Source: a virus | Taxonomy: Duplodnaviria > Caudoviricetes | DNA length: 54,633 nt | Virus record (IMG/VR): IMGVR_UViG_3300046171_000030 | Location: 1 to 54,633 of that record | Strand: one strand, 5' to 3' | Shown: positions 1,898-47,119 of the stretch, one piece after another | Layout of the letters: every line of letters starts with the position of its first letter | How positions within the stretch are numbered: the stretch's first letter is position 1 | Notes under the pieces: generated by a model | Databases searched by the model: none | What the model was told of the DNA's origin: nothing | Seen by the model: only the letters and a program-made list of their open reading frames with translations | Translations under genes and position numbers: made by a program

Positions 1898-4036
1898 ATG
1901 AACGAAGATGAAATTATGATTGAAGACGATGCTATTGCACTAGAAGATAGTGACGATACTTCTATCTCTGACGTAGATGTAACTAATATTATTCCTTTTA
2001 TTATGGAACGCTATAAGCGGTCTGAAGATTATAGGTATCAGGACGAAGAACGCTGGCTTAAAGCCTACCGCAATTATCGTGGTTTATACGGACCTGATGT
2101 TCAATTTACCGAATCAGAAAAATCTCGTGTCTTTATTAAAGTCACAAAAACTAAAACGCTGGCTGCTTACGGACAAATTGTTGATGTCTTGTTTGCAAAC
2201 CAGCGTTTTCCTTTATCTGTCGAACCTACGGAGTTACCTGAAGGTGTGGTTGCTGATGTACACTTTGATCCACAGGAACCAGAGCAGCTTCGTGAAAGCC
2301 AAAATACAAGCCCTTATGGTTTTGCGGGTGATGGACAAGATTTACCGCCGGGTGCTACAGCACAAACACTACAAGAAAAACTTGGTGTTATGCAGAATAA
2401 ACTTGAGCCTATTTCTGATAAACTGAAAGAAGGGCCGGGTAAAACACCAACAGCTATTGCATTTAGCCCAGCTATGATTGCTGCAAAAAAGATGCAAAAG
2501 AAAATCCATGACCAGCTAGAAGAATCAGGTGCTACTAAACATCTGCGCAATGCTGCATTTGAAATGGCACTTTTTGGTACTGGTGTAATGAAAGGTCCGT
2601 TTGCCGTAGACAAAGAATATCCTAATTGGGATGAAGACGGTAACTATGATCCGCTGTTTAAAACAATCCCCCAAGTAAATCACGTATCTGTTTGGAACTT
2701 CTACCCAGATCCAGATGCAAACAACATGGATGAAGCACAGTTTGTGATTGAGCGTCACAAGATGTCACGGACGCAATTACGTAATTTGAAGAAGCGTCCA
2801 TACTTCCGTGGTGAAGTTATTAATGAAGTAATTGGCATGGGCGAAAACTATGTTAAAAAGTACTGGGAAGATGACTTGTCTGACTATGCACCAGAGCATG
2901 GTGTAGATCGTTTTGAGGTACTTGAGTATTGGGGCATGGTTGATGTTGAGTTGCTCGAAGAGCAGAACATTGACATTCCAAAAGAACTACGTGACTTTGA
3001 CGAACTACAAGCTAACGTATGGATTTGTAACGGACGTTTGTTGCGCATGGTGCTTAATCCATTTAAGCCATCTAAAATTCCATACTCTGCTTCTCCATAT
3101 GAGTTAAACCCATACTCATTCTTTGGCGTTGGTATCGCAGAAAACATGGACGATACGCAGACATTGATGAATGGCTTTATGCGTATGGCTGTTGATAATG
3201 CCGTACTGTCTGGCAACTTGATTGTGGAAGTAGATGAAACAAACCTAGTGCCGGGGCAAGACTTATCTCTATATCCGGGCAAGGTGTTCCGAAGACAAGG
3301 TGGCGCACCGGGTCAAGCTATCTTCGGTACTAAGTTCCCTAACGTATCGCAAGAAAACATGATGTTGTTTGACAAGGCACGTGTACTTGCAGATGAAAGC
3401 ACAGGCTTCCCATCATTTGCACATGGACAGACAGGTGTGTCTGGTGTAGGCCGTACTGCTAGTGGTATCTCAATGCTTATGGGTGCTGCGCAAGGTAGCA
3501 CTAAAACAATCATTAAAAATGTAGACGACTATTTATTACGTCCACTTGGTGAAGGCTTCTTCCGCTTTAATATGCAGTTTGACTTTGATCCTGAGATCAA
3601 GGGCGACTTGGAAGTTAAGGCACGTGGTACGGAAAGCCTAATGGCTAACGAAGTGCGTAGTCAGCGTTTGATGCAGTTCTTGCAGATTGCAAGTAATCCT
3701 GCACTCGCACCCTTTGCTAAGTTCCAGTATGTAATCCGTGAGATTGCAAAATCTATGGAACTAGACCCCGACAAAGTTACCAACAATATGGACGAAGCTG
3801 CACTGCAAGCAGAGATTATGAAGGGCTTCCAGCAGCCAATGCAACCAGAGCAAGGTGGAATGACACCACCACCGGGTGCTAATGCTATGGACCCAACAGG
3901 TGCAGGTGGTGGCAATATAGGTACTGGGCAGGTTCCTGTACCGGGTGAACAAGGATTTAGTGCGAATGGACAAGGAAATACTCAGCAAGCTGAAGCCGCT
4001 GGTGGGCAACAACCGCCAATGGGTCCACTTCAGTAA
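1898..4036 (+). CDS. Portal protein
   Basis: 712 aa right after TerL; FGTGVMKG, RTASGISML motifs typical of podovirus portals; RBS AAGGA upstream. Confidence 0.9.
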   Translation: MNEDEIMIEDDAIALEDSDDTSISDVDVTNIIPFIMERYKRSEDYRYQDEERWLKAYRNYRGLYGPDVQFTESEKSRVFIKVTKTKTLAAYGQIVDVLFANQRFPLSVEPTELPEGVVADVHFDPQEPEQLRESQNTSPYGFAGDGQDLPPGATAQTLQEKLGVMQNKLEPISDKLKEGPGKTPTAIAFSPAMIAAKKMQKKIHDQLEESGATKHLRNAAFEMALFGTGVMKGPFAVDKEYPNWDEDGNYDPLFKTIPQVNHVSVWNFYPDPDANNMDEAQFVIERHKMSRTQLRNLKKRPYFRGEVINEVIGMGENYVKKYWEDDLSDYAPEHGVDRFEVLEYWGMVDVELLEEQNIDIPKELRDFDELQANVWICNGRLLRMVLNPFKPSKIPYSASPYELNPYSFFGVGIAENMDDTQTLMNGFMRMAVDNAVLSGNLIVEVDETNLVPGQDLSLYPGKVFRRQGGAPGQAIFGTKFPNVSQENMMLFDKARVLADESTGFPSFAHGQTGVSGVGRTASGISMLMGAAQGSTKTIIKNVDDYLLRPLGEGFFRFNMQFDFDPEIKGDLEVKARGTESLMANEVRSQRLMQFLQIASNPALAPFAKFQYVIREIAKSMELDPDKVTNNMDEAALQAEIMKGFQQPMQPEQGGMTPPPGANAMDPTGAGGGNIGTGQVPVPGEQGFSANGQGNTQQAEAAGGQQPPMGPLQ

Positions 4037-4185: not shown

Positions 4186-6363
4186 ATGGCAAAACGTATG
4201 GCAAAACAAATGGAACTCTTTGAGCCTGTAGAACGTGGCTTTGATGAGGGTGGGCTTATGGAAGAAGGTGGTATGGTTGATGAGGTGTCTGGCAACGATG
4301 TACCGCCGGGATCACTGCGTACTGAAGTGCGTGATGACATTCCTGCTCAACTTAGCGAAGGTGAATTTGTTTTTCCTGCAGACGTAGTGCGTTATATTGG
4401 CCTTGAGAACTTGATGCGTATGCGTCAAGAAGCAAAGCAGGGCTTGGCACAGATGGAAGCTATGGGTCAGATGGGCAATAGTGAAGAAGCCACTATAGAA
4501 GATAATTTACCTTTTGACATGTATGACCTTGACGTAGATGATGAAGACGAGTATAATAATATGGCTGTAGGTGGTATGCCTACAAAAGACCAAACAAGAC
4601 AAGCCTTTCAATTAGGTGGAACTGTTCAGCTGCCCGGTTTTACAGGTGTGCAAACTACCCAACCAACTGCTCCAACTACAGGTTACAGACCTTATGTAGA
4701 ACCTGTACAAGCTGCTTCTAGTCAGTTTATTCCTCAGTTTACAGGTGTGCAGTATACTACAGCCACGGGAACAACCAATATTCCTACTTTCGCTGAAACT
4801 GTAGGTAGAAATCCCGGTCAGTATGATGAACTTAGAACATATGTAAATGATGCGGGGCAGATACTACGGATACCTTTTAAAAACGGTCAGCCTATTTATC
4901 CAATCCCATATGGCTATAAATACCAAGCAGAAGAAGCGGTAACACCAACAGATACAACTACAGTGCCTACAACGGTAGCTGGGCAAGATGATAGTGGCGG
5001 TGATGGTTCAGATGCAATATCTGGTAGAGTAGCAACAACACTAGGTACAAATCCTGCTATTGGTGTATCTGTACCTACGGGCGGTGCAGTCAGTCAAGCA
5101 GATAAAGATGCATTTGGTGGTAATGTTGGTGCTTATAAAAATACGGACTACCGTAGTGCCGTTATAGATTTAGCTGGTTATCAATTAGGTTCGTTATCTC
5201 CAACTGCGGCTCTAGCTAATCAAATGGGTAAAAATTTCGGATTAACACAATCCGGTAATTTTAATGAAATTGGCACAGCTATGAATCAAGCCCGTAATGA
5301 AGCATTGTCTGCATTAGGTCTTGCTAATATGGGACAAGTAACTACAGATGCGCAGTATTCTGCTATAGCAGATTCTATGATTGCCGCAAAAGAAGCAGCT
5401 AAAAAAGGTAATTTTGCTTACGCTACAGTAACTAGAGATGCATTAGCAAAACATCAAGATGCAATTAAAGCTGGTCAAGTTGCTGCGATGACGGAATTAG
5501 GATATAAGTCAACTGATATTAATAATCCTGTTGCAGTAGCGCGGGCTATGGCATCTTACGATACTCAGATAGGCCAATTAAGTGGAGAAATTGATGCTGC
5601 AACACAGTCTGGTGCTGTTACGTCAGCGGTAACCAATGAACCAGTAAGAGATAAAGACCAAAACCCTGTAATGACAGAAAAAGGACTTGCTAAAGTAAAT
5701 AACTTAAAAGAGATATTATCTGCTAAAAAGGCTAAAAAAGATTCATTGCTTTCAACGGAAGTAGGGAAAGCGGCAGCAGTATCGGCAGCGTTTGATGCGG
5801 CAGGTTATAATGAAGATGATGACCCCGGACAGAACGCACCTGCAGGTGGATACACAGGTAACGTGAGTGAAGACCCTGGATTTGACTCTGGTTTTTCAGA
5901 TGGCTCACAAGGTAGTGAATCTGGCGGCGGCTATGGCTCAGATAGTGGTGGCGTTGGTGGTGCAGGTGATATGGGCGTTATATGTCTAACTGAAGATATG
6001 AAAGTAAAATGCAACGGTATAGTTGACTTTGTAACCAGAGTACAAGTAGGTGACATCATAGACAACACAGTAGTTACAGAAGTATTACACAAGCATATGC
6101 GTGAAGGTTACTACAAAGTTAATGGCGAGTTGAAGATTACTAATGACCATCCTGTACTTGTTAACGGTTCATGGAAACGTACAGAAGACTTAGTGCTTGG
6201 CGACTACATTAATAATGTAGAAGTAACGTCACTTGAGTATGTAGAGCAAGTAACACCGACAGTTTATATTGGTACAGCGGATGACCGCTATGATGTGTAT
6301 ACAGAAGGTGAAGTCTACACAGTGCATGGACAATATAAAAATGCATTAAAGAAAGCTGCGTAA
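4186..6363 (+). CDS. Virion protein with N-terminal DDIPAQLSEGEFVF module, xxGG motifs and C-terminal Hint domain; candidate maturation protein
   Basis: Between portal and scaffold; ATG 4186 after AAGGA; Hint motifs CLTEDMKV, ITNDHPV, YTVH. Confidence 0.7.
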   Translation: MAKRMAKQMELFEPVERGFDEGGLMEEGGMVDEVSGNDVPPGSLRTEVRDDIPAQLSEGEFVFPADVVRYIGLENLMRMRQEAKQGLAQMEAMGQMGNSEEATIEDNLPFDMYDLDVDDEDEYNNMAVGGMPTKDQTRQAFQLGGTVQLPGFTGVQTTQPTAPTTGYRPYVEPVQAASSQFIPQFTGVQYTTATGTTNIPTFAETVGRNPGQYDELRTYVNDAGQILRIPFKNGQPIYPIPYGYKYQAEEAVTPTDTTTVPTTVAGQDDSGGDGSDAISGRVATTLGTNPAIGVSVPTGGAVSQADKDAFGGNVGAYKNTDYRSAVIDLAGYQLGSLSPTAALANQMGKNFGLTQSGNFNEIGTAMNQARNEALSALGLANMGQVTTDAQYSAIADSMIAAKEAAKKGNFAYATVTRDALAKHQDAIKAGQVAAMTELGYKSTDINNPVAVARAMASYDTQIGQLSGEIDAATQSGAVTSAVTNEPVRDKDQNPVMTEKGLAKVNNLKEILSAKKAKKDSLLSTEVGKAAAVSAAFDAAGYNEDDDPGQNAPAGGYTGNVSEDPGFDSGFSDGSQGSESGGGYGSDSGGVGGAGDMGVICLTEDMKVKCNGIVDFVTRVQVGDIIDNTVVTEVLHKHMREGYYKVNGELKITNDHPVLVNGSWKRTEDLVLGDYINNVEVTSLEYVEQVTPTVYIGTADDRYDVYTEGEVYTVHGQYKNALKKAA

Positions 6364-6388
6364 GAGGCTTACTTAAATCTTACAATTA

Positions 6389-6438
6389 GTTGGCTACTCA
6401 CTCCCCACGCCCGACAGTGTGGCTACAGTGGCCCCAAC
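6389..6438 (+). promoter_or_regulatory. Structured mRNA leader of scaffold gene (hairpin with two CUAC/CC internal loops)
   Basis: GUUGG-CUAC-UCACU-CC-CCACGC-loop-GUGUGG-CUAC-AGUGG-CC-CCAAC, immediately 5' of the AAGGA RBS. Confidence 0.65.
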
Positions 6439-6454
6439 AAAAGGAAATACAAAC

Positions 6455-7327
6455 ATGAACGATACAATTATGGCTGAAGAAATGCAGTCACCAAAGAAAG
6501 TTGCGTTTGCAAATCGTAAATACACTAACGAAGAAAAACGCAAGATGGAAGAAGAAGAATTAGAACAGTTGATGAAGGAACAAAAAGGTGAAGTAGAACA
6601 AGAAGCTGCTGAACCACAAGAAGCTGAACCTACAAACGCAGAAGAAAAAACATTTAAAAAGCGTTACTCTGACCTGCGCAGGCATCAACAGCAGCAAGCT
6701 GATGAGTTTAAGAAGGAAATTGAGGCATTAAAATCTCAACTAAGTCAGGCAGCACAGAAAGAAATGAAACTGCCTAAGTCTGACGAAGACATTGAACAGT
6801 GGGCGGCAGACTACCCAGATGTAGCAGCCATTGTTGAAACAATTGCAATGAAGAAAGCACGTGAACAAGCTACTGCGCTTGAAGAACGCTTTAAAGCAGT
6901 TGATGAGATGCAGTACAGTGCCAAGAAAGAAAAAGCTGAAGCTGAACTAATGCGACTGCATCCTGACTTTGATGAGATTCGTGACAGTGATGACTTCCAC
7001 AATTGGGCAGATGATCAACCTAAGTGGGTACAAGATGCACTGTATGACAATGACAATGATGCACGTTCCGCTGCTAGAGCAATTGATTTGTATAAGGCTG
7101 ACATGGGTATTGCTAAAAGCAAACCTGCTAAAGATAAAGATGCAGCTAAGTCAGTATCTACAAAGAACTCAAGAAGTAGGCCACAAGACGATGAGTCTTC
7201 GACTTACTTAAAGGAATCACAAGTACAAAAGATGTCACCTCAACAGTATGAGAAGATGTCTGACGAGATCATGGAAGCTATCCGTAGTGGTAAGTTTATC
7301 TATGATGTATCTGGCTCCGCTAGATAA
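6455..7327 (+). CDS. Capsid scaffolding protein
   Basis: Acidic coiled-coil protein directly upstream of MCP; FKKRYSDLRRH, HPDFDEI, C-terminal EIMEAIRSGK. Confidence 0.8.
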   Translation: MNDTIMAEEMQSPKKVAFANRKYTNEEKRKMEEEELEQLMKEQKGEVEQEAAEPQEAEPTNAEEKTFKKRYSDLRRHQQQQADEFKKEIEALKSQLSQAAQKEMKLPKSDEDIEQWAADYPDVAAIVETIAMKKAREQATALEERFKAVDEMQYSAKKEKAEAELMRLHPDFDEIRDSDDFHNWADDQPKWVQDALYDNDNDARSAARAIDLYKADMGIAKSKPAKDKDAAKSVSTKNSRSRPQDDESSTYLKESQVQKMSPQQYEKMSDEIMEAIRSGKFIYDVSGSAR

Positions 7328-7341
7328 TATATAAAAAAGTG

Positions 7342-7369
7342 TTGACAAATAGTTATTTTTACGTATAAC
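7342..7369 (+). promoter_or_regulatory. Sigma70-like promoter for capsid operon
   Basis: TTGACA-N16-TATAAC. Confidence 0.6.
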
Positions 7370-7382
7370 TATAGTCAGATTA

Positions 7383-7519
7383 GTGTAACTGTATTGCGCA
7401 ATATGGTTACACGACAATTCGCAAACAGCAAAGTCTTACGGATTACCTGAAGAACATGGCCCGTTGAATAGTAGGGCGGCCACCTTACTAAAATACGCAC
7501 CCAAGTGAATCAGCCTCTG
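7383..7519 (+). promoter_or_regulatory. Structured 5' leader of major capsid gene
   Basis: Hairpin 7383-7412 (with two G-U pairs) and long stem 7439-7519 with UUAC/CC and CC/CAC internal loops. Confidence 0.55.
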
Positions 7520-7573
7520 ATTAGTCTTGTGAGTTTGTATCTGTGAAATGCTATAAAATTAGGAGAAAATATC

Positions 7574-8635
7574 ATGGCTTTTACTACCGCAGCCGGGTAT
7601 GGTAACCTTCCTAACGGCAATTTTAGCCCAGTAATTTACAGCAAACAGGTGCAGCTTGCGTTCCGCAAGTCAGCTGTTGCTGAAGCTATCTCAAATTCCG
7701 ACTACTTCGGTGAGATTGCTAACATGGGCGATTCCGTGAAGATTATCAAGGAACCCGAAATCACAGTCAAGGCTTACGCCCGTGGTACAACCATCACGCC
7801 GCAAGACATTGACGATGAAGACTTCAACCTGACCATCGACAAAGCTAACTACTTTGCGTTCAAGGTTGATGACATTGAAGAGGCACACTCACACGTTAAC
7901 TTCCAGTCACTGGCAAGTGATCGTGCGGCGTATCGCCTTTCTGACCAGTTTGACCAAGATGTTCTTGGCTACTTGTCAGGTTACACTCAGTCTGCTTTAC
8001 ATGCAAATGCTGATACAGTAAACACAACTGTTAATGGTTCTGTAGCTGTTTCAACTGCTGGTACAGACGAATTGCTTGCCAGCATGAAGCTGGACGCAAC
8101 TGACTTTGCTGGCACAGGTGTTGCTGGTCAGTCAATCTCAATCCTGCCACGTACAGGTGCAGGTGCCGTTCCAACTGGTAACGGTGAAGCCAACCCACTT
8201 CAAATCGTTGCTCGTATGTCACGTCTGCTAGACCAGCAGAATGTAGACACACAAGGACGTTGGTTGGTTGTTGATCCTGTATTCATGGAAGTACTGAAAG
8301 ATGAAGATTCACGTCTTCTGGATGCAGACTTCGGTGGTTCAGGTCTGCAGAATGGTCTGGTGTTGAACAGCTTGCACGGCTTCCGTGTATACGTTTCAAA
8401 CAACCTGCCATCAATTGGTACTGGTGCTTCAACAACTGGTGGCATGAACGCTGATAACTTTGGCGTAATTGTTGCTGGTCATGATTCAGCTGTTGCTACT
8501 GCAGAGCAGATCAACAAGACTGAAACTTACCGTGACCCTGACAGCTTTGCTGACATTGTTCGTGGTATGCATTTGTATGGTCGCAAGATTCTTCGTCCTG
8601 AAGGTCTTGTTAACGCCATCTACAACTTGGCTTAA
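7574..8635 (+). CDS. Major capsid protein
   Basis: 353 aa after scaffold; AGGAG RBS; GDSVKIIKEP, FAFKVDDIE, DIVRGMHLYG motifs of podovirus coat proteins. Confidence 0.93.
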   Translation: MAFTTAAGYGNLPNGNFSPVIYSKQVQLAFRKSAVAEAISNSDYFGEIANMGDSVKIIKEPEITVKAYARGTTITPQDIDDEDFNLTIDKANYFAFKVDDIEEAHSHVNFQSLASDRAAYRLSDQFDQDVLGYLSGYTQSALHANADTVNTTVNGSVAVSTAGTDELLASMKLDATDFAGTGVAGQSISILPRTGAGAVPTGNGEANPLQIVARMSRLLDQQNVDTQGRWLVVDPVFMEVLKDEDSRLLDADFGGSGLQNGLVLNSLHGFRVYVSNNLPSIGTGASTTGGMNADNFGVIVAGHDSAVATAEQINKTETYRDPDSFADIVRGMHLYGRKILRPEGLVNAIYNLA

Positions 8636-8649
8636 GGGGGGATTAAGAC

Positions 8650-9129
8650 ATGCCTAACATTACCGCACTTCTTCATCCCGCTTCAGGGAACTCACAGCGT
8701 GGACGTAACCCGTACTACGTTGATGTGACAATTGACCTGACCACAAATAGCATTGCTCCCGGCGATACTATTCAGGCAATTACCGTACCTGCTAACACTC
8801 TGATTATGGGTGCTGGCTTCCAAGTTGTTGAATCTGCTACCATGAATACAGGTACAGATGCTACTGCTGCTCTTGGCTTCACTGCTGGTGACGTTGACGA
8901 GTTTGCTGTAGCACTCGACATTGACGGTGCATCAGACGGAGATTACGCTCCGCAGGTTGCAATTGATGGACTAGCACTCTCTACATCTGGTGACACAATT
9001 GACTTTGTGTTGGCAGGTAGTGGTGCATCATTTACGGCTGGTAAGCTACGTGCTTACGCCATTATGATGGACATCAGCGATCAGGGTGATACGACTGCTA
9101 ACGAAGTAGACCGTGACACTCTTGCTTAA
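8650..9129 (+). CDS. Putative capsid decoration/minor capsid protein
   Basis: 159 aa beta-rich protein directly after MCP, followed by hairpin. Confidence 0.6.
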   Translation: MPNITALLHPASGNSQRGRNPYYVDVTIDLTTNSIAPGDTIQAITVPANTLIMGAGFQVVESATMNTGTDATAALGFTAGDVDEFAVALDIDGASDGDYAPQVAIDGLALSTSGDTIDFVLAGSGASFTAGKLRAYAIMMDISDQGDTTANEVDRDTLA

Positions 9130-9139
9130 CTAATGTGTT

Positions 9140-9161
9140 GGGGGCAGGGCAACTTGCCCCC
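9140..9161 (+). terminator. GC-rich hairpin after capsid genes (terminator or mRNA stabiliser)
   Basis: GGGGGCAGG-GCAA-CTTGCCCCC with GNRA loop; weak U-tract. Confidence 0.55.
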
Positions 9162-9197
9162 GCACTTCTATGAGATTTAATAAAGGACGCACAAATC

Positions 9198-9635
9198 ATG
9201 GCAATCACAACTGCAATGTGTAACAGCTTTAAGACAGAACTTCTTGGCGGTGTCCATGATTTGGATACCGATTCTTTGAAGCTTGCTTTAATTAAAGCAT
9301 CACCATCTGGCACTTATAATGCCAGCACAACTAATTATTCTGATGTAACTGGTAACTCTGATGAGGCATCAGGTACAAACTATTCCGCTGGCGGTCAAGT
9401 ACTTGACGGTGCTGCTATTTCTTTATCCGGTTCAACAGCGATTGTTGACTTTACAGACGAAGTATTTGCTGACGTTACTGTGTCTGCTGACGGTTGTATT
9501 ATTTACAACGCAGGACAAGCTAACAAGGCAATTGCTGTTATTGACTTCGGTGGCACAGTAAGTGCTACTGCTGGTGACTTGACTATTGAATTTCCTGCTG
9601 CTGATGCGAGTAATGCCGTTATTCGGATAGCCTAA
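9198..9635 (+). CDS. Virion structural protein
   Basis: 145 aa, AAGGA RBS, beta-rich, in structural operon. Confidence 0.65.
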   Translation: MAITTAMCNSFKTELLGGVHDLDTDSLKLALIKASPSGTYNASTTNYSDVTGNSDEASGTNYSAGGQVLDGAAISLSGSTAIVDFTDEVFADVTVSADGCIIYNAGQANKAIAVIDFGGTVSATAGDLTIEFPAADASNAVIRIA

Positions 9636-9636
9636 C

Positions 9637-10470
9637 ATGTCTTTCTACGACTCCGCAGATGCTATCTATGGAGTTGCCCAATATGGAGCAGCTTCTTACG
9701 GAGTTGTAGCACCTAATGTTGCTTTAACAGGAGTAAGTGCTACAGGGTCTATTCAACCAGTAGCAACGACAGGGTTTGAAATTGACCTGTCAGAAAAACT
9801 AAATAGTGTATCTGCAGTATCTGCTGTAAATTCTGTAACGGTTAATATAGCCGAAACACTAGCTTCTGTATCTGCTGTAGGTTCTGTTGGAACTGTAAGT
9901 ATAAGCAACACTGTAACGCTATCTGGCGTTGAAGCAACAGGCGCAGTTAATAGTGTAGAAGAAAAACCTACGGAACTACTTGATAGTGTTTCAGCTACAG
10001 GTTCCATAGGAACACTATCTGTAAACTTATCTGTTCCGGTTACAGGCGTTCAGGCAACTGGTTCTGTCAATACCGTAGAAGAAAAACCGACAGAAGTTTT
10101 GAACAGCGTTAGTGCCACAAGTTCAGTTGGTACAGTTCAACCTAATATAGATGAAAAACCTAGTGGCGTATCTGCAACAGGTTCTATCGGTACACCACAG
10201 CCGATAGTTAGTTTTTCAATTAGCCTTACAGGTGTATCCGCTGTCGCTTCGTTTGGAGGTGCAGAGGCAAAAACAACAGAACCTGTAGTTGGCGTAAGTG
10301 CTACTGGCTCTGTGAGAACATTAACCTTATATACCACTGCAGGTATTACAGGTGTACAAGGCACAACAGCACTAGGAACAATTACAAAGACTGCTGTAAT
10401 ATTTAACTTTCAAGCTGTGGCAAATCAATACAGTCGTGTTAGAACAATTAAAATACCACGAGCAGCATAA
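9637..10470 (+). CDS. Repetitive fibre-like structural protein
   Basis: About a dozen repeats of GVSATGS(I/V)GT at roughly 18-19 aa period. Confidence 0.65.
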   Translation: MSFYDSADAIYGVAQYGAASYGVVAPNVALTGVSATGSIQPVATTGFEIDLSEKLNSVSAVSAVNSVTVNIAETLASVSAVGSVGTVSISNTVTLSGVEATGAVNSVEEKPTELLDSVSATGSIGTLSVNLSVPVTGVQATGSVNTVEEKPTEVLNSVSATSSVGTVQPNIDEKPSGVSATGSIGTPQPIVSFSISLTGVSAVASFGGAEAKTTEPVVGVSATGSVRTLTLYTTAGITGVQGTTALGTITKTAVIFNFQAVANQYSRVRTIKIPRAA

Positions 10471-10649
10471 TGACTACAGTAGCAGAAAGAACAATAGACA
10501 TACCGTTTGAAAGTAGGAAAGTGTATATTCCTCGTGGTACAACTTCAGATGACAGAACGGTACTGATTAAGTTTGAAAGCAGAACTGTTTATATAGAAAG
10601 ACAATCTACATCTGCTGAACGTACTGTGATGGTAACGGAGTTATACTAA
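10470..10649 (+). CDS. Small protein missing from ORF track (59 aa, MTTVAERTIDIPFESRKVYIPRG...)
   Basis: Fills the gap exactly with TAATG coupling; internal repeat RT..I.FESR.VYI.R. Confidence 0.7.
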   Translation: MTTVAERTIDIPFESRKVYIPRGTTSDDRTVLIKFESRTVYIERQSTSAERTVMVTELY

Positions 10650-10995
10650 ATGTCGTATCGCTGGCCTATTAAAGATAAAGATGAAACACTGGACTACAGC
10701 GTAGACTGGTCACGATTTCTTGATACTGCAACAATTAGTTCTGTAGAATGGCATGTGCAAACAGACAGCATAGGTAAAACACTCCTTGCATCTGGTCAAG
10801 ACTTAACAACAGCTTCAAGGTGGTGCAGTTACTGACAGTATTCAAAATGTTTCTCAATCAAATACAACTACTGTAGCTACTATTAATCTTGGTAGCGGTG
10901 TAAACAATAGGGAATATACATTTACATGTCGCATGACAGATAGCACAGGCAGTACTGCAGAGCGTACCATTAAGCTACGTATTAGAGAGAAGTAA
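10650..10995 (+). pseudogene. Structural/adaptor gene split by one extra base at about 10818 (sequencing error or frameshift)
   Basis: Removing one A from GCT TCA A GGT gives a continuous 114 aa ORF ending AERTIKLRIREK just before the next ATG. Confidence 0.75.
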
Positions 10996-11000
10996 AACAT

Positions 11001-11741
11001 ATGGCATATGATTTTCTTGGCCTAGTAAACGATATTAACAGACGCTTAAACGAAGTTGAACTTACGTCTGTAAATTTTGCTACTGCCGCAGGTTTTTATG
11101 GGCAAGCAAAAGATGCAGTCAATGCTTCAATTCGTTACATCAATCAATCACAGTATGAATGGCCTTATAATCACGTAGAACAAGAGGACACCCTATCTGT
11201 TGGTGTTTCACGTTATCCCTTTCCTACAGACTGCAAAGTAATTGACTTTGATACCTTTAGAATTAAAGAAGATACTACACTAGGTAATAACACAGTAAAA
11301 TTACCTATCTTATCTTATGAAGAATATCTTGACAAGTTTGTAGATCAAGAGTATAATAGTGCTTCGACAACTGTAGGACAGGGTGTTCCTCAATTTGTAT
11401 CACAAGCACCATCACTTGAGTACATCGTAACTCCTGCACCTAACAATGCTTATAAACTTATATATGAATATTACCGTATTCCAGTTGATTTAGCATTGTA
11501 TGATGATGTACCGGGTATTCCTGAACGATTCAGACATATTATTGTAGACGGTGCAATGCACTACGCTTATCTTTTCCGTGGCAATACACAAGATGCGGTA
11601 GTAGCTAAAGAAAAGTTTGAAGAAGGTATTTCACATATGAAGTCTATGCTAATTAATCGCTATACTTATGTGCGTTCTTACCTCATTCAGCAAAACACTG
11701 GTGGCGGTGGTAGAACAGGGTATTCAAGGCTTCCGTTGTAA
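11001..11741 (+). CDS. Head-tail adaptor / tail tubular protein A-like
   Basis: 246 aa; FLGLVNDINRRLNE start, IPERFRHIIVDGA; precedes nozzle gene. Confidence 0.7.
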   Translation: MAYDFLGLVNDINRRLNEVELTSVNFATAAGFYGQAKDAVNASIRYINQSQYEWPYNHVEQEDTLSVGVSRYPFPTDCKVIDFDTFRIKEDTTLGNNTVKLPILSYEEYLDKFVDQEYNSASTTVGQGVPQFVSQAPSLEYIVTPAPNNAYKLIYEYYRIPVDLALYDDVPGIPERFRHIIVDGAMHYAYLFRGNTQDAVVAKEKFEEGISHMKSMLINRYTYVRSYLIQQNTGGGGRTGYSRLPL

Positions 11742-13918
11742 TGGACAAATGGCAAACTTATCCTGTAGAATTTCGTGGTGGCCTAGTAACAAATTTAAGT
11801 CCTTTACAACAGGGCATAAACTCACCCGGTTCTGCTCGTATCCTTCGTAACTTTGAACCATCCGTTGAGGGTGGTTACAGGCGCATTGAAGGCTATGATA
11901 AGTATGACCCAGCAATTATACCGCCTTATGGTGAGCCTGTTGTACATGGAGATGGACAAAGCGGCACTGGATTAATTATAGGTGCAATACATACTACACC
12001 AGTAGCAGGTGATGGAATATCACTAGATGGTGGATTAGTAGATGGTGCAGCGCAGACAGGTACAAGTTTAGACGTAGATGGTTTAGATGTAGCACCATCA
12101 GCTAATGATACATTTACCATTGCAGGTGACACAACAGTATACACAGTCAGTGCAGCAACGGCTCTTGTAGGTACAGCATCTACTCTAACAATTACACCAG
12201 CTATTACAGTAGCACCTGCAGATAACGCAGTTCTTTCGTTTAGATATACTATAGCATCTGGTGGCGTATCTTTTGATGCTACAAATAATAGAGCAACACT
12301 TACGCTAGATCAGACAATGGTGGTTAACCCATCAAACGCAGACGTAGTTACCTTTGTAAGCACCATATCTGATTATAATGCAATTGGTGTAGCAAGCTGG
12401 GAAGACCAAGCAATTATAGCTAAAAATGCAGATGTGTTTAAAACATCCGGCAACGGCTTTACAAAAATAAATGTATACGACTACGGCGCACCACTTGTAA
12501 ACGGAGCAAGTCAAACAGGAAGCAGCTTAGTTGTAGATGGCATTACAGGTATACCACAAGCAGGTGACGTATTTAAGATTGCAGGAATTGACCTTGTATA
12601 TACAGTAACTGCAGACGCAACTGTAACAAGTGGGGCAGCAACATTAGCAATTAACCCAGCACTTGCAAGTAGCCCAGCAGATAATGCTGTAATTACATTT
12701 ATCTCTCTCAACAGAGAAGGTGCTAACAAAGTAAGATTTGCTAAATATAATTTTAGTGGCACTGAAAAAATAGCAATTGTAGATGGTGCTAATCCACCTG
12801 CGCTATACGATAACAATGACTTTATAGTATTAAATAGCGCACCTGCAGATGTAGTAAGTGCTACACACGTAGTAGAACATAAGAAGTCATTGTTTTTTGG
12901 TAAGGGTACTACACTAGCTTTTACAGCACCATACGCTGATGACAGTTTTGATGTAGCTGCTGGTTCGGGTTCTATTAACGTAGGCGGCACAATAACAGGA
13001 CTGGTTGTTTTTCGTAATCAGCTGATTATTTTTACAGAGAAAAACATTCAGCAGTTACTCGGTAACACACTTGCAGACTTTAATCTGCAGCCAATCACAA
13101 GAGATATAGGTTGCCTTGAAGGTGACACAATACAAGAGATTGGCGGGGATGTAATGTTCCTTGCACCAGATGGGTTAAGACTTTTAAGTGCAACAGAACG
13201 AATTGGCGACTTTGGACTTGCTTCAGTATCTAAAGTTATTCAGCCAAACATGACTAAGTTTATTGCAGCAAACACAAACTTTACTAGCTGTGTAATTCGT
13301 GAAAAGTCACAATACAGAATATTAGGCTTTAACACTAACATTACACAAGAAAATGCTCAAGGCATTATTGCCACACAGTTTGCTGAACAAGGCGGTGCTG
13401 GTACAGGATTTGCAGAAACACGTGGTATACGTGCTTATGTAGCAGACAGTAATTACAATGAAGCCGTAGAGGTTGTACTGTTTGCAAATGATGATGGTTA
13501 TCTATATCAAATGGAAGCAGGTAATAGTTTTGACGGACTTAATATCCAAACTACATTTGCTACACCGCATTTGCCAATTCAAGACCCACGAGTACGCAAG
13601 ACATTTTACAAATTATTTCTTTACACAGACCCACAAGGTAGTGTAAACTTTGATGTAAGTCTTAAACTAGATTTTGATACACAAGGAACTATTCAGCCTG
13701 CTCCAATTTCATTTGCAAACACATCTGGTGTTGTAGGTTTTTACGGAGGAGGCACATTTGGAACTACAAGCTACGGAACAAAACTGTTAAAGTTATTTGA
13801 AACACAGATTGTAGGTTCAGGATTTGCCGTTTCATTTCAGTTTGAATCAGACGGCACAGACCCACCATTTTCACTGGATGCAATCACAGTTGAGTATGGT
13901 ATTCATGACAGAAGGTAG
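11741..13918 (+). CDS. Tail nozzle / tail tubular protein B-like with inserted repeated beta domains
   Basis: 725 aa; FRGGLVTN start; propeller-like ITGLVVFRNQLIIF and DIGCLEGDTIQEIGGDVMFLAPDG. Confidence 0.75.
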   Translation: MDKWQTYPVEFRGGLVTNLSPLQQGINSPGSARILRNFEPSVEGGYRRIEGYDKYDPAIIPPYGEPVVHGDGQSGTGLIIGAIHTTPVAGDGISLDGGLVDGAAQTGTSLDVDGLDVAPSANDTFTIAGDTTVYTVSAATALVGTASTLTITPAITVAPADNAVLSFRYTIASGGVSFDATNNRATLTLDQTMVVNPSNADVVTFVSTISDYNAIGVASWEDQAIIAKNADVFKTSGNGFTKINVYDYGAPLVNGASQTGSSLVVDGITGIPQAGDVFKIAGIDLVYTVTADATVTSGAATLAINPALASSPADNAVITFISLNREGANKVRFAKYNFSGTEKIAIVDGANPPALYDNNDFIVLNSAPADVVSATHVVEHKKSLFFGKGTTLAFTAPYADDSFDVAAGSGSINVGGTITGLVVFRNQLIIFTEKNIQQLLGNTLADFNLQPITRDIGCLEGDTIQEIGGDVMFLAPDGLRLLSATERIGDFGLASVSKVIQPNMTKFIAANTNFTSCVIREKSQYRILGFNTNITQENAQGIIATQFAEQGGAGTGFAETRGIRAYVADSNYNEAVEVVLFANDDGYLYQMEAGNSFDGLNIQTTFATPHLPIQDPRVRKTFYKLFLYTDPQGSVNFDVSLKLDFDTQGTIQPAPISFANTSGVVGFYGGGTFGTTSYGTKLLKLFETQIVGSGFAVSFQFESDGTDPPFSLDAITVEYGIHDRR

Positions 13919-13926
13919 AGGACACT

Positions 13927-16900
13927 ATGGGTACAGGCTACACTCGTAACGACACCAGTAATAACATTGCTGATGGTAACATTATTAATGCGTCAGACCT
14001 TGATGGTGAATTTGATGCGGTAGAATCCGCATTTAACTCCAGTACAGGTCATACGCACGATGGCACAGCCGCAGAAGGTGGAGCAATCACAGTTGTTGGT
14101 CCAGTACAAGACCTTGTTGTAAGTGCCACCGAAGTTAAACCAAAAACAACAAATACACTTGACTTGGGTACATCAGCTTTGTTGTACAAAGATGCGTACC
14201 TGCAAGGCAATATGTATTTCCGTGATACTGCACTTAAAATTGTATCTAGTGCAGATGGTCAACTTGATATTGATGCCGATGTTGAACTGGAACTTGTAGC
14301 CCCCACAGTTGACATTGATGCCTCTACCGCTGTAACTATTGACACTGCCACACTCACAATCACAGGTTCTGCTAATGTAGTTGGTGACCTAGACGTTGAC
14401 AATATCAACATCAATGGCAACACCATCATCAGCACAGACACCAATGGCAACATTGCCCTGACACCTAATGGAACAGGCGAAGTTGACATCAGCAAAGTAG
14501 ACATCGACAGTGGTGCTATTGATGGCACTATTATCGGTGCATCTTCTGCTGCCGCAATTACAGGTACTACAATTACAGGTACATCCTTTGTGACATCAGG
14601 TGATATGACCTTTGGCGACAACGACAAGGCTGTCTTTGGTGCTGGGTCTGACCTTGAAATTTATCACGATGGCACTGAAAACGTAATAGACAGCAACGCA
14701 GGCACATTGGTTTTGCGTTCTGCTGGTGCTGGAACTATTGAAATGCGTGACCAAAGTTCACAGGTTTTAGCACAATTTAATGATAACAGTGACGTAAAGT
14801 TATACTATAATAACAATGAAAAACTCGCCACCACCGCCACAGGCATTGATGTCACAGGCACAGCAGTCACAGACGGCCTCACAGTAGCTGGTAATGTCAG
14901 TGTTGACGGCGGCACAATCAAGCTGGACGGTAACTATCCGACTGGTACAGGCAACGTGGCGTTGGGTGATGCTGCGCTTGATGATGGCAGCTTATCTGGT
15001 AGTTACAACACTGCTATAGGTGGGAATGTTCTTACTTTACACACTAGTGGCAGTTACAACACTGGAACTGGTTATGGTGCTTTAGCTAGCAACACAACAG
15101 GGTCTAGTAATGTATCCGTTGGTACTAACTCTTTACTAAACAACACCACCGCCAGCAACAACACTGCGATAGGTTATGCCGCACTCTTCGCAAACACCAC
15201 TGGCGCATCCAATACGGCGGTTGGTTCGGGTGCTATGCAAAATACCACCACAGGGGCAACAAATGCAGCCTTTGGTAAGGATACTTTGGCTGTAAACACT
15301 ACTGGCACAGATAACTCTGCGTTTGGACAGGGGGCTTTATACAGTAACACGACTGCAAATAACAATACGGCTGTTGGTAAATCGGCACTAAACGCAAACA
15401 CCACTGGTGCAGGAAACGTAGGGCTTGGAGCCTACGCAATGCAAGCAACAACAACTGGGCAGCATAACGTCTCTGTTGGTCTTAGTTCAATGTATTATAA
15501 TACAACAGGCCAATACAACGTAGCCATAGGCACATCTGCGCTTGAAAGAAACACCACCGCATCCAACAACACAGCAATTGGATATCAGTCTGCCTATAGT
15601 AATACTACTGGTTCGCCTATAACTGCTATAGGTCGCAAAGCACTCTACAGCAACACCTCTGGTGCAGATAATACAGCATTAGGTCGTAACGCTTTATTTT
15701 ACAATACTACAGGAGCAGACAATACTTCTTCTGGTAATGAAGCTATGCAAGCTAACACTACAGGTAGTTTTAATACAGCATATGGCTCTGATGCCTTGAG
15801 AGCAAACACCACCGCAAACAACAACACCGCTGTGGGCTATCAGGCTGGGTACAGTATTACTACTGGTGGAAACAACGTACTACTCGGTTTGCAAGCTGGC
15901 TTAACAAGTACAACTGGTGGTCAAAACGTATTTATTGGAGATAGACCTGCGTTTGAAGGTGTAGTAACAGGAAGCAACAACGTTGGCATTGGCTCATTTT
16001 CGTTAAGAAGAGCAACCAGTGCTACTATAAATGTTGGTGTCGGCGACCAAACTCTTCAGGCAACTACGACAGGCAACTACAACACTGCTTTAGGTGGTCA
16101 AGCACTGTATTCCAACACTACCGCATCCAACAACACGGCAGTGGGTTATCAGTCGCTAGATGCAAACACTACTGGCGGGTTAAATACTGCTGTTGGTTCA
16201 ACCGCTTTGTCTGCGGTAACAACAGGCAATAACAACACTGCTGTCGGTGCGTTTGCTTTGGATGCTTCAACAGGTTCTGGAAATACTGGAGTTGGGTCTG
16301 GTACTTTAGGAAGTTCAAGTAACTCCGCAAATAATAATACTGCTGTGGGTTTTGATGCTATGAACGGTACGACATCAGGACATTCAAACGTAGCTATAGG
16401 ACATGTAGCATTTGACGCAAACACAACAGGCTATCAAAACGTAGCTGTAGGTCGTCACGCTCTTGGCGCAAACACCACTGCAAATTTGAACACTGCTCTT
16501 GGTAATGAGGCACTGTTTGCAAACACTACTGGCACGTTAAATACTGCTGTTGGCGCACAGGCACTTGACGCAAACACCACCGCAGGCAACAATACGGCTG
16601 TTGGTTATGCAGCTATGTCCTTAAACACAACAGGCGCACAAAATACAGCACTTGGTCGTCAAGCCCTCTACTCCAACACCACCGCATCCAACAACACGGC
16701 AGTGGGGTATCAGGCTGGTTATTATGTAACCACAGGTTCTAAAAACACCATTGTCGGTGTCTACAACGGCAATCAAGGTGGCCTAGACATCCGCACATCC
16801 AGCAACAACATCGTGCTGTCAGACGGCGATGGTAATCCTAGATTTTCAGGTGATGCTGTTGGTAGATTTTACCTTAGGCATAATGGTGCAGCCCCATCCA

Positions 16901-17382
16901 CAGGAACTCCTGCTGCGTTAAACATTAGACGGAGTGACACTTCTAGAATTATCGCTACACAAAATGGGTCAAGTGATACACTTCAATATCATCATGTTTT
17001 TCTTAACACCTCCGCTAGTATTGTAGGTACCATTGCTGTAAACTCATCTGCTACTGCCTACAATACATCATCCGACTACCGCCTCAAGGAAAATGTAATT
17101 GACTTAACTGGCGCAGCAGACCGTGTTCAGCAACTTGCACCAAAGCGGTTTAACTTCATCGCAGATACCGACAAGACTGTTGACGGTTTTCTTGCCCACG
17201 AAGTCGCTGATATTGTGCCAGAAGCAATCACAGGTGAAAAAGATGCAGTTGACGAAGATGGCAACCCAGAATATCAAGGGATAGATCAATCTAAAATCGT
17301 TCCACTGCTAACCGCAGCATTGCAGGAAGCACTAACAAAGATTGACGCATTAGAGGCTAGAGTAGCCGCACTTGAGTCCTAA
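13927..17382 (+). CDS. Tail fibre with NTAxG 14-aa repeats and C-terminal peptidase S74 intramolecular chaperone
   Basis: Many NTTxxNNTAVG repeats; SDYRLKEN cleavage motif, GFLAHEV, terminal coiled coil. Confidence 0.9.
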   Translation: MGTGYTRNDTSNNIADGNIINASDLDGEFDAVESAFNSSTGHTHDGTAAEGGAITVVGPVQDLVVSATEVKPKTTNTLDLGTSALLYKDAYLQGNMYFRDTALKIVSSADGQLDIDADVELELVAPTVDIDASTAVTIDTATLTITGSANVVGDLDVDNININGNTIISTDTNGNIALTPNGTGEVDISKVDIDSGAIDGTIIGASSAAAITGTTITGTSFVTSGDMTFGDNDKAVFGAGSDLEIYHDGTENVIDSNAGTLVLRSAGAGTIEMRDQSSQVLAQFNDNSDVKLYYNNNEKLATTATGIDVTGTAVTDGLTVAGNVSVDGGTIKLDGNYPTGTGNVALGDAALDDGSLSGSYNTAIGGNVLTLHTSGSYNTGTGYGALASNTTGSSNVSVGTNSLLNNTTASNNTAIGYAALFANTTGASNTAVGSGAMQNTTTGATNAAFGKDTLAVNTTGTDNSAFGQGALYSNTTANNNTAVGKSALNANTTGAGNVGLGAYAMQATTTGQHNVSVGLSSMYYNTTGQYNVAIGTSALERNTTASNNTAIGYQSAYSNTTGSPITAIGRKALYSNTSGADNTALGRNALFYNTTGADNTSSGNEAMQANTTGSFNTAYGSDALRANTTANNNTAVGYQAGYSITTGGNNVLLGLQAGLTSTTGGQNVFIGDRPAFEGVVTGSNNVGIGSFSLRRATSATINVGVGDQTLQATTTGNYNTALGGQALYSNTTASNNTAVGYQSLDANTTGGLNTAVGSTALSAVTTGNNNTAVGAFALDASTGSGNTGVGSGTLGSSSNSANNNTAVGFDAMNGTTSGHSNVAIGHVAFDANTTGYQNVAVGRHALGANTTANLNTALGNEALFANTTGTLNTAVGAQALDANTTAGNNTAVGYAAMSLNTTGAQNTALGRQALYSNTTASNNTAVGYQAGYYVTTGSKNTIVGVYNGNQGGLDIRTSSNNIVLSDGDGNPRFSGDAVGRFYLRHNGAAPSTGTPAALNIRRSDTSRIIATQNGSSDTLQYHHVFLNTSASIVGTIAVNSSATAYNTSSDYRLKENVIDLTGAADRVQQLAPKRFNFIADTDKTVDGFLAHEVADIVPEAITGEKDAVDEDGNPEYQGIDQSKIVPLLTAALQEALTKIDALEARVAALES

Positions 17383-17402
17383 TAATTTACAAGGAGTATA
17401 AA

Positions 17403-17645
17403 ATGGACGAACTAACAGCAGAACAAATCGCACAGCACTACACAGCAATGGGTCACAGCGTTGACCTCATCAATGCTATCATTGCTGGTGAGGCTATGGC
17501 AGACGATGATGCAGCAGATAAGCAGGACTGTGTAAACAGGAATGTTGAGCATCTGGAACTCATGGTTGCTAAGGACTTCTGGGGTTCAGAAGACATGACA
17601 GCAGCCAACGCCGCTATCTCTGCTGGCAACTCCTACACAGCGTAG
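17403..17645 (+). CDS. Small fibre-associated protein
   Basis: 80 aa with AAGGAG RBS directly after fibre. Confidence 0.6.
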   Translation: MDELTAEQIAQHYTAMGHSVDLINAIIAGEAMADDDAADKQDCVNRNVEHLELMVAKDFWGSEDMTAANAAISAGNSYTA

Positions 17646-17655
17646 GGGTTGACCA

Positions 17656-17880
17656 GTGGAAATGACCAGCTTGATAGACATGTTACTTGGCCTAGTGTTG
17701 GCTGGTGGTGCGTGGTGGGCTAATGGCGTGAGCCAAGAACAAAAGCGCATCGAAATCTTGTTGAATAAAACAAGAGAAGACTATGCAACTCGCATGGAAC
17801 TACGTGACGATATGCGGCAGGTCATGGAAGCCTTGCATCGTGTAGAGGATAAGTTGGACAAAGTATTGAGTAGGGATTAA
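17656..17880 (+). CDS. Small membrane-anchored coiled-coil protein
   Basis: N-terminal hydrophobic helix then LHRVEDKLDKVL coiled coil. Confidence 0.55.
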   Translation: MEMTSLIDMLLGLVLAGGAWWANGVSQEQKRIEILLNKTREDYATRMELRDDMRQVMEALHRVEDKLDKVLSRD

Positions 17881-17884
17881 GTGA

Positions 17885-21196: not shown

Positions 21197-21198
21197 TT

Positions 21199-21420
21199 AT
21201 GTCAAGACAATTTAACGCTTCTCTAGCATCCTATAATAAACTAATTCGTATGATGGATGAAATACCAGCAGAAAAGCAGCCCGCAAAAAGTATAGGTCTA
21301 TTGTCACCATCACGTAGTAAAAGTGATACTAATAAAAAAGATATGTCACAACCTATAAATCGTATAATTAAACATTTTAATACTATCAAGAGTAAAAGGG
21401 GTGAATTAAATGGTTCTTGA
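21199..21420 (+). CDS. Hypothetical protein
   Basis: 73 aa, GAGG RBS, operon spacing. Confidence 0.55.
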   Translation: MSRQFNASLASYNKLIRMMDEIPAEKQPAKSIGLLSPSRSKSDTNKKDMSQPINRIIKHFNTIKSKRGELNGS

Positions 21421-22998: not shown

Positions 22999-22999
22999 A

Positions 23000-26589: not shown

Positions 26590-26618
26590 AAAAAAGGGGG
26601 CAATTAAGCCCCCTCTTT
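26590..26618. terminator. Bidirectional rho-independent terminator between convergent modules
   Basis: AAAAA-AGGGGGC-AATTAA-GCCCCCT-CTTT. Confidence 0.85.
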
Positions 26619-26657
26619 CATAACAGATTAGTAACCCATATCATGACAAAACTATTA

Positions 26658-32720: not shown

Positions 32721-32749
32721 GTTATATCACGCTATGTCCTTAGTGTCAA
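32721..32749 (-). promoter_or_regulatory. Sigma70-like promoter overlapping 3' end of polymerase gene
   Basis: Minus strand TTGACA-N17-TATAAC. Confidence 0.7.
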
Positions 32750-47080: not shown

Positions 47081-47119
47081 TTGACAGGGGTTGACATAAT
47101 TTGCTATAATTGGTATAAC
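47081..47119 (+). promoter_or_regulatory. Tandem overlapping sigma70-like promoters
   Basis: TTGACA(47081)-N18-TATAAT and TTGACA(47091)-N17-TATAAC. Confidence 0.75.

Follow-up and report, generated by a model that had tools for sequence, protein, structure and literature searches.

The phage and its capsid-gene leader

The stretch of DNA analysed here, referred to as the window, is the whole of IMG/VR virus record IMGVR_UViG_3300046171_000030 (54,633 bases). It represents a complete HMO-2011-type marine podophage with a completeness estimate of 99%; PMC9038755 counts phages of this type among the dominant marine viral groups. The major capsid protein gene of this phage is preceded by a leader of about 195 nucleotides that holds a conserved, covarying RNA structure. 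An irregular hairpin at 7439-7519 had been singled out in an earlier sequence-only reading. Every pairing proposed there is present at the given coordinates, and the hairpin proved to be the core of a larger structured leader, which comprises, in this order, a promoter, a 5' hairpin, a closing helix, the core hairpin with helices P0 to P4, a Shine-Dalgarno sequence, and the capsid start codon at 7574. The features are as follows.

7342..7369, + strand: sigma-70-type promoter (-35 TTGACA at 7342-47, 16-nucleotide spacer, -10 TATAAC at 7364-69)
7383..7412, + strand: 5'-proximal hairpin of 13 base pairs; sequence varies, structure kept
7421..7426 and 7533-38, + strand: closing helix, GCAAAC/GUUUGU
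7439..7519, + strand: core irregular hairpin, P0-P4
7439-42 and 7516-19, + strand: P0, CGGA/UCUG
7443-46 opposite 7514-15, + strand: outer internal loop, UUAC opposite CC
7447-50 and 7510-13, + strand: P1, CUGA/UCAG
7454-55 and 7505-06 plus 7457-59 and 7501-03, + strand: P2, the latter part being UGG/CCA
7460-61 opposite 7498-7500, + strand: inner internal loop, CC opposite CAC
7462-64 and 7495-97, + strand: P3, CGU/ACG
7469-76 and 7483-90, + strand: P4, UAGUAGGG/CCUUACUA
7477..7482, + strand: apical loop of P4, CGGCCA, with the palindrome GGCC at 7478-81
7539-44, + strand: AUCUGU, located 3' of the closing helix and invariant in the window's clade
7561-66, + strand: Shine-Dalgarno sequence AGGAGA, followed by the capsid start ATG at 7574-76
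7574..8635, + strand: major capsid protein gene (PHROG major head protein, 2.4e-67; Pfam Phage_capsid_4, 1.7e-08)

When segment 7439-7519 was folded alone, the minimum free energy (MFE) structure and the centroid both coincided exactly with the hairpin proposed in the sequence-only reading (-20.1 kcal/mol, ensemble frequency 0.45). The stability of this single sequence is unexceptional, with z = -1.36 and 23 of 200 shuffled sequences folding as well. Similarly weak values were obtained for the segment 7416-7546 (z = -0.85) and for the leader of the neighbouring scaffold-position gene (6355-6460; z = -1.08). Since the hairpin is not exceptional on its own, the evidence for it must come from relatives.

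Covariation in the window's clade

An IMG/VR scan with the capsid protein yielded 597 relatives among 599 candidates, of which the best 80, with capsid proteins 78-96% identical to that of the window, were used. The spacer of interest lies between the capsid gene and the gene at 6419..7327 (+ strand; likely start at ATG 6455, as judged by comparison with relatives), which occupies the scaffold position between the portal and capsid genes. The word scaffold is a positional label only: Pfam gave no match for this gene, and its PHROG has no known function. Sixty-four of the 79 spacers were unique. The spacer measures 219-268 nucleotides in all loci with both gene ends, except for L072, L074, and L077 (861-889 nucleotides), in which an insertion of about 620 bases separates the scaffold-position gene from the capsid promoter. 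In its conserved form it reads, from 5' to 3', TTGACA, 16 nucleotides, and TATAAC; a hairpin of variable sequence; GCAAAC; a long hairpin; GUUUGY with AUCUGU; an AU-rich stretch; AGGAG; and ATG. Alignment A2 omits four of the 64 leaders, namely L039 and L040, which carry a large insertion in P4, and the divergent L062 and L065; alignment A3 omits L065. The pair counts given below refer to 57 distinct rows.

Closing helix: 92.6% paired, nearly invariant in the window's clade
P0: 89.0% paired, 0 of 4 pairs changed on both sides (nearly invariant)
P1: 94.7% paired, 2 of 4 pairs changed on both sides
P2: 84.9% paired, 4 of 5 pairs changed on both sides
P3: 99.4% paired, 3 of 3 pairs changed on both sides
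P4: 83.6% paired, 8 of 8 pairs changed on both sides

The covariation score over these rows was 0.321, as compared to 0.130 for shuffled alignments (none of 500 reached the observed value) and at most 0.063 for slid partners. RNAalifold, applied to 60 relatives, predicted P1-P4 unaided and reported compensatory changes in 15 of 18 pairs. G-U pairs outnumbered A-C pairs by 125 to 34 in the window's clade (92 to 28 in a second count), as expected for an RNA transcribed from the + strand, and G-U was the commonest pair at one position of P4 (35 of 57 rows). The leader itself is under selection: its mean pairwise identity of 0.70 exceeds that of third codon positions of the capsid gene (0.56; first and second positions, 0.87). 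Thirty-three columns were invariant among the 60 leader sequences.

Several other pairings were tried and rejected. Pairing of ACGGAU (7438-43) with AUCUGU (7539-44) was 89.4% paired but showed no covariation. A local hairpin at 7432-44 (74.4% paired), a hairpin formed by 7537-40 and 7548-51 (77.6%), and an alternative outer helix P0' taken from the MFE fold of 131 nucleotides (75.2%) all had covariation below that of shuffled alignments.

Covariance model, second clade, and distribution

A covariance model of the capsid leader, R1, recognized a single site in the window, 7416-7546, with 147.4 bits; the runner-up scored 16.9 bits (E = 0.27). In 81 of 83 loci the model found a single match, in every case immediately 5' of the capsid gene. 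The two exceptions were L062, which had no match, and L076, for which upstream DNA was missing. The loci with a match included Puniceispirillum phage HMO-2011, which is 81.0% identical to the window across 94% of the stretch 6300-8700, and Roseobacter phages CRP-345 and CRP-9, in which only short parts of that stretch match. Sequences outside the training set of R1 were also recognized: CRP-345 with 68.6 bits, CRP-9 with 39.5 bits, the L039-type leaders with 64.9-66.3 bits, and L065 with 51.8 bits. Among 80 loci retrieved by pattern, R1 matched in 34, again once per locus and upstream of the capsid gene.

A second IMG/VR scan, with the CRP-9 capsid protein as query, added 80 further loci. R1 matched in 73 of these (E <= 0.01), the match ending about 12-50 nucleotides before that to the capsid protein. 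The element is always located 25-40 nucleotides from the Shine-Dalgarno sequence. In an alignment of 62 distinct sequences of this CRP-9-like clade, which was fitted to the model, 88.1% of the positions were paired and the covariation score was 0.374, as compared to 0.124 for shuffles. In the same model-fitted alignment, the closing helix GCAAAC/GUUUGC is replaced by CUAAAC/GUUUAG, with both-side changes in all six pairs, and P0 changes from CGGA/UCUG to AAGA/UCUU (90.5% paired). Every helix of the capsid-leader domain is thus backed by compensatory changes across the two clades.

The letters ACCU, GGCCC, GCACCC, and CAGCCUC are kept in both clades. They correspond to the two internal loops with their closing pairs; the loops are conserved in sequence (NNAC/CC and CC/CAC). 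That reading had also named a competing hairpin, AAUCAG/CUGAUU (7508-13/7517-22), that would count against it. This hairpin is not conserved: of the distinct leaders, 20 of 57 in the window's clade can make all six pairs, as compared to none of 62 in the CRP-9-like clade. It is a lineage-specific possibility.

Rfam 15 gave no match in 6364-6454 or 7328-7573 (cmscan of 5500-9000, both strands, E <= 10). The sole output for 5500-9000 consisted of two sub-threshold matches to snoRNA models, both inside the scaffold-position gene. Among the pattern matches listed for bacterial genomes, none of 80 was a real leader, from which absence from bacteria does not follow.

A self-complementary tip under selection

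The apical loop of P4 carries a short palindrome, which changes among relatives in a coordinated manner. Scripted analysis of 109 unique P3-P4 segments assigned the tip palindromes GGCC (63), GCGC (14), GAUC (8), and GUAC (4). Rows that the script left unresolved were read by eye as GGCC (L074, L327), GAUC (L097, L170, L385, L395), GUAC (L160), and GCGC (L030); the tip of L150 is a chance match. Truly non-palindromic tips occur in L337, L354, and L392 (GGCA), in L355 and L400 (GGCG), and in L344.

Tip classes were then compared across 163 loci with near-full-length matches to the capsid protein. Of these, 142 could be classified, 17 lacked the anchors, and 4 had too little upstream DNA. The classified loci included 91 with GGCC, 25 with GCGC, 12 with GAUC, 2 with GUAC, 9 with non-palindromic tips, and 3 without P4. 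A palindrome of the form G-N-N'-C is therefore present in 130 of 139 classified loci that possess P4. On a FastTree phylogeny of the capsid proteins, at least 18 switches took place among the four palindrome classes (shuffled labels: mean 36.4, minimum 31), each of which requires both middle bases of the tip to change in concert. Switches to non-palindromes numbered seven.

The self-complementary P4 tip is under selection. Coordinated switching from palindrome to palindrome points to a kissing-loop homodimer, the simplest reading being self-pairing between two molecules; accordingly, two leaders may pair with each other through their P4 tips. An intramolecular pseudoknot between the GGCC of the loop and GGCC at 7458-61 was considered and rejected, because changes in the loop break this pairing without compensation.

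Promoter, predicted transcript start, and 5' hairpin

The promoter at 7342-69 is near-invariant across the 64 unique intergenic regions. The pattern TTGACA-N15-18-TATAAC occurs five times in the window, as compared to 0.10 copies expected, and none of 100 shuffled sequences reached five. Each of the five copies faces a downstream gene, which suggests that the capsid gene has a host-type promoter of its own. The -10 hexamer TATAAC fits the alphaproteobacterial housekeeping consensus. As judged from the promoter, transcription probably starts near 7376-7378.

The other copies, with spacers of 16 or 17 nucleotides, are located at 32721-32749 (-), 39595-39623 (-), 47091-47119 (+), and 52436-52464 (+), each before a gene on the same strand. 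Promoters of the early and late regions thus look alike, and timing may depend on something besides promoter class. A perfect inverted repeat of 8 base pairs, ATAGTTAT/ATAACTAT, was noted at 7350-7357 and 7366-7373, within the capsid-promoter spacer and overlapping the -10 hexamer. Most relatives retain it, whereas the spacers of promoters generally diverge, and it may be a candidate operator for a DNA-binding regulator.

The 5' hairpin begins 4-17 nucleotides 3' of the -10 hexamer in 51 unique segments, the distance being 9-13 nucleotides in 45 of them. It is stable in nearly all cases (z < -2 in 50 of 51 segments; median z, -4.3; median free energy, -15.6 kcal/mol). Stem-loops at the 5' terminus protect mRNA. 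Placed next to a 5' end that is itself predicted, the hairpin at 7383-7412 would shield the capsid mRNA by analogy. Its loop (7396-7399 and equivalents) is often a small palindrome, such as GCGC, AGCU, or UAGCUA, but not always, UUCGCU being common.

In RNA libraries of four studies, assembled contigs connect the leader with coding sequence of the capsid gene (equivalent to 7326-7798, 7223-7596, 7202-7963, and 7440-7598), and one contig extends from the scaffold-position gene through the capsid leader. These contigs offer weak support for transcription, since assembled contigs show neither ends nor strand nor level, uncovered parts carry no information, and carry-over of DNA is possible.

A second structured leader before the scaffold-position gene

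The sequence-only reading had likened the capsid leader to a hairpin of similar layout before the scaffold-position gene and had proposed a shared element that might coordinate scaffold:capsid stoichiometry. The hairpin before the scaffold-position gene does exist as described and is conserved and covarying. Its outer loop is YUAC/CC; the inner loop of the window's clade has the inverted form CC/CUAC. Its parts, located within the 91 nucleotides before ATG 6455, are listed below.

6389..6438, + strand: scaffold-position leader hairpin
6389-93 and 6434-38, + strand: S1
6394-97 opposite 6432-33, + strand: outer loop, CUAC opposite CC
6398-6402 and 6427-31, + strand: S2
6403-04 opposite 6423-26, + strand: inner loop, CC opposite CUAC
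6405-08 and 6419-22, + strand: S3

The helices were 84.5% paired, with a covariation score of 0.238 versus 0.154 for shuffles (0 of 500 reached it). A change of the first S2 pair from C-G to U-A settles the register and identifies CUAC/CC as a genuine internal loop; on the same ground, the MFE register of the window's sequence, in which CUAC is paired, was rejected. A covariance model of this leader, R2, scored 74.7 bits at its own site, and nothing else in the window passed E = 0.8. In the CRP-9-like clade, 37 of 82 loci were matched by R2, with a shorter form, GG-CUAC-helix-CC-CC, that has the outer CUAC/CC loop only; 6 of these 37, including CRP-345, retain both loops.

Both leaders keep the loop 5'-(Y)NAC-C...G-CC-3' with its closing C-G pair across clades. 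The distance from loop to loop differs between them (5 versus 13 positions), and from clade to clade, changes in the loop letters of one leader are not matched by changes in those of the other. A recognition module common to both leaders is plausible, the chances for and against it being about even.

Neighbouring genes and other features

Other features of the head-gene region and of the late operon are the following.

315-1886: terminase, an ordinary large terminase (PHROG)
1898-4036: portal/adaptor (PHROG)
6359-6383: hairpin GUAAGA/UCUUAC spanning the stop codon of a 736-amino-acid gene, upstream of the scaffold leader
7574-26587: late operon of about 19 kb, all on one strand
26597-26640, - strand: intrinsic terminator, a G-rich stem followed by a U-run

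The homologue of the window's capsid protein in HMO-2011 is annotated as coat protein. Elsewhere in the window, PHROG names a DNA polymerase, a helicase, a ribonucleotide reductase, an integrase, and others; no phage-encoded RNA polymerase is among the PHROG assignments of the window's genes. Methyltransferase genes occur near the capsid gene in some relatives.

The hairpin at 6359-6383 has counterparts at the equivalent place in relatives, with entirely different stem sequences. There is no U-tract 3' of the stem, so it is not a classic terminator. The terminator at 26597-26640 lies after a MazG-like gene, where the late operon meets the genes that run leftward; a match of a loose descriptor of the shared loop at 26597-26637 (-) is merely this terminator and was discarded.

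Two observations concern the cultured relatives. The gap before the scaffold-position gene of HMO-2011 (L001, 2800-3068) is 270 nucleotides long, as compared to 91 in the window, i.e., about 180 nucleotides are extra. The annotated coat start of CRP-9 (L082, 3149-3166) is probably 15 nucleotides too early: GGAGGA lies 8 nucleotides before the second ATG, and that start gives an N-terminus MAF... as in the window's capsid protein.

Possible function of the capsid leader

The comparison of relatives establishes the structure, its conservation, its fixed site before the capsid gene, and selective maintenance of a palindromic tip; transcription from the promoter, dimerisation, a trans-acting factor, and a regulatory outcome are what we infer. 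We tentatively favour the view that the leader (about 7377-7573) controls the capsid mRNA in cis, its loops being read by a trans factor and P4 enabling it to dimerise; it is a working preference that could well be wrong. Host RNA polymerase would start at the consensus sigma-70-type promoter (7342-69), and the 5'-terminal hairpin would protect the transcript. The domain closed by GCAAAC/GUUUGY would then display its two conserved asymmetric loops (NNAC/CC and CC/CAC) together with the self-complementary apical loop, and would exert post-transcriptional control in cis. The loops would be recognized by a trans-acting factor, most likely a phage protein and maybe also the reader of the CUAC/CC loop in the scaffold leader, and two leaders would kiss through the P4 tip to form a putative homodimer. 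As a result, translation or stability of the capsid mRNA would be set.

A number of results weigh against this view. The alignments A4 and A5 were fitted to models, and a model-fitted alignment leans toward structure. The counts of tip switches presume a common history of the leader and the capsid gene, and recombination would inflate them. P4 is missing in L065, L360, L370, L391, and L402 and is thus dispensable in some lineages, while non-palindromic tips (GGCA, GGCG, and others) occur in 9 of 142 loci. The Shine-Dalgarno region lies about 23 nucleotides 3' of the closing helix, and inspection by eye revealed no conserved pairing that masks it, so that there is no evident sign of a simple on/off switch in translation. 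As to a common reader of both leaders, R1 had no match at the scaffold leader (6364-6454) and R2 none at 7328-7573 (E <= 10, filters off), and R1 found no scaffold leader in any of the 83 loci. The loose shared-loop descriptor performed at chance in the window, with 67 sites as compared to 59 ± 9 in shuffles. Of the claim that one motif recurs in both leaders, the loop layout stands, the models and the descriptor do not bear it out, and the likeness is suggestive.

The leader may instead be a passive element of stability or processing, an unlikely reading that deserves serious attention: it would protect the very abundant capsid mRNA or provide a site for host RNase III or RNase E, at which the capsid mRNA is split off from read-through transcripts, with no dedicated regulator. 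Such a role agrees with a 5'-terminal hairpin whose structure is kept while its sequence drifts, with the absence of a conserved structure masking the Shine-Dalgarno sequence, and with the RNA-library contig that begins in the scaffold-position gene and continues across the leader; in its irregular core with asymmetric internal loops, the leader also broadly resembles the RNase III sites of phages. However, sequence conservation in the loops goes far beyond the demands of a generic stabiliser, with 33 invariant columns among 60 sequences; selection acts on the palindromic tip; and a promoter belonging to the element lies immediately 5' of it. A more specific version of the favoured view is a homodimerising operator. 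When late mRNA is abundant during infection, two leaders would kiss via P4, and unassembled scaffold or coat protein would read either the dimer or the NNAC/CC loop plus the CUAC/CC loop of the scaffold leader. We regard this specific arrangement as improbable. If true, it would couple synthesis of capsid and scaffold to the state of assembly and would be an RNA-level version of the scaffold autoregulation in P22, in a phage group that is among the most abundant in the ocean.

The leader follows immediately on a host-type promoter and opens a long operon with all genes on one strand, in a phage without its own RNA polymerase. This calls to mind processive antitermination, in which the nascent leader, like HK022 put or Bacillus EAR, would bind the host polymerase throughout the late operon of about 19 kb. 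Loop letters are kept across different alphaproteobacterial hosts (SAR116, Rhodobacteraceae), as expected of a conserved host partner. No terminators to be overcome were found in the scanned part (6000-9000), the scaffold leader with its similar loop has no promoter before it, the self-complementary tip would have no role, and there is no similarity to any Rfam family; antitermination is distinctly improbable. There is only a slight chance that the domain is a stand-alone dimeric non-coding RNA whose site of action, such as assembly or packaging, is in trans and whose sole tie to the capsid gene is a common transcript. A strong promoter, a compact closed domain, and a self-complementary loop would suit such an RNA, and natural RNA homo-oligomers exist, being described as rare in PMC7357161. 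But no terminator separates the domain from the capsid start, the distance from the Shine-Dalgarno sequence is always 25-40 nucleotides, and the phage has an ordinary large terminase and no Rfam match to packaging RNA (pRNA).

A riboswitch-like sensor of small molecules ranks just behind and is very unlikely. Conserved unpaired nucleotides between covarying helices would be in keeping with it, but Rfam returned no match at E <= 10, the single-hairpin architecture has no evident pocket-forming junction, and a metabolite logic is not obvious for a capsid gene. Neither candidate for an alternative structure or expression platform is conserved: the hairpin 7508-13/7517-22 is complete in 20 of 57 and 0 of 62 leaders, and P0' lacks covariation. 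We give hardly any credence to a DNA-level element, in which the inverted repeat of P4 and its palindromic centre would be a binding or modification site on double-stranded DNA. The tip palindromes are indeed DNA palindromes of 4-6 base pairs, and methyltransferase genes lie near the capsid gene in some relatives. A DNA site, however, does not explain why G-U is the commonest pair at one position of P4 (35 of 57) and exceeds A-C three- to four-fold overall, why the stems vary freely with pairing kept, or why there is a nested structure P0-P3.

The analysis thus adds a new RNA motif, well supported and with its promoter defined, and a second motif before a neighbouring head gene. It also points to a specific RNA that may set the output of head proteins in phages that have no polymerase of their own and identical consensus sequences for early and late promoters. 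Selection for a self-complementary loop is a rare signature, and makes dimerisation of an mRNA leader of a bacterial virus directly testable. The cultured members HMO-2011, CRP-9, and CRP-345 make experiments possible.

Comparison with known systems

Our literature searches revealed no description of a capsid-upstream RNA motif of this kind, nor, among the papers listed, of a phage mRNA leader with a selected palindromic loop. The main paper on the HMO-2011-type group (PMC9038755) offers no account of gene regulation, a term search having given no hits for 'promoter', 'noncoding' or 'RNA polymerase'. The capsid leader resembles the candidate RNAs (csRNAs) upstream of phage structural genes (Rfam GP20-a and GP20-b; PMC10690425) in its comparative discovery, in a covarying structure upstream of one structural gene, and in a function that is putative; no family, be it GP20-a, GP20-b, or any other in Rfam, matches it. 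PMC10690425 catalogues some 10,000 candidate RNAs of viruses in IMG/VR. The sole csRNA that two of its tables list upstream of P22_CoatProtein genes is DNAVirus_7287, which comes from human and mammal gut samples and is not marine.

As in phage P22, the window has a head module with a P22-type coat protein, according to the annotation of HMO-2011, and assembly proteins are thought to be balanced post-transcriptionally; in the present case the RNA elements are seen and the regulator is putative. The scaffolding protein gene of P22 reportedly regulates its own expression after transcription. This autoregulation is not known to involve an operator RNA, and the capsid leader has no known counterpart in that literature.

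Like the 5' stabiliser hairpins of the ompA type in bacterial and phage mRNAs, the leader has a stable hairpin a few nucleotides from the predicted 5' end, its structure being kept and its sequence not. This likeness covers only 7383-7412 and not the sequence-conserved core. HK022 put and Bacillus EAR are structured RNAs directly behind a host-polymerase promoter that heads a long operon; they share no sequence or model similarity with the capsid leader and leave the palindromic tip unexplained. Packaging RNA of the phi29 type has two intermolecularly complementary loops, whereas the capsid leader has one self-complementary loop, is found in a phage with an ordinary large terminase and portal, and has no Rfam match.

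The remaining parallel is with the dimerisation initiation site of retroviruses, a kissing-loop hairpin. The capsid element sits in a phage mRNA leader rather than in an RNA genome, and its dimer is predicted; most capsid-leader loops are 6 nucleotides long with a palindrome of 4, and P4 has been lost in some lineages. In both cases, however, an apical self-complementary sequence of 4-6 nucleotides is flanked by unpaired, mostly purine bases, and variants switch among palindromes and rarely to non-palindromes.

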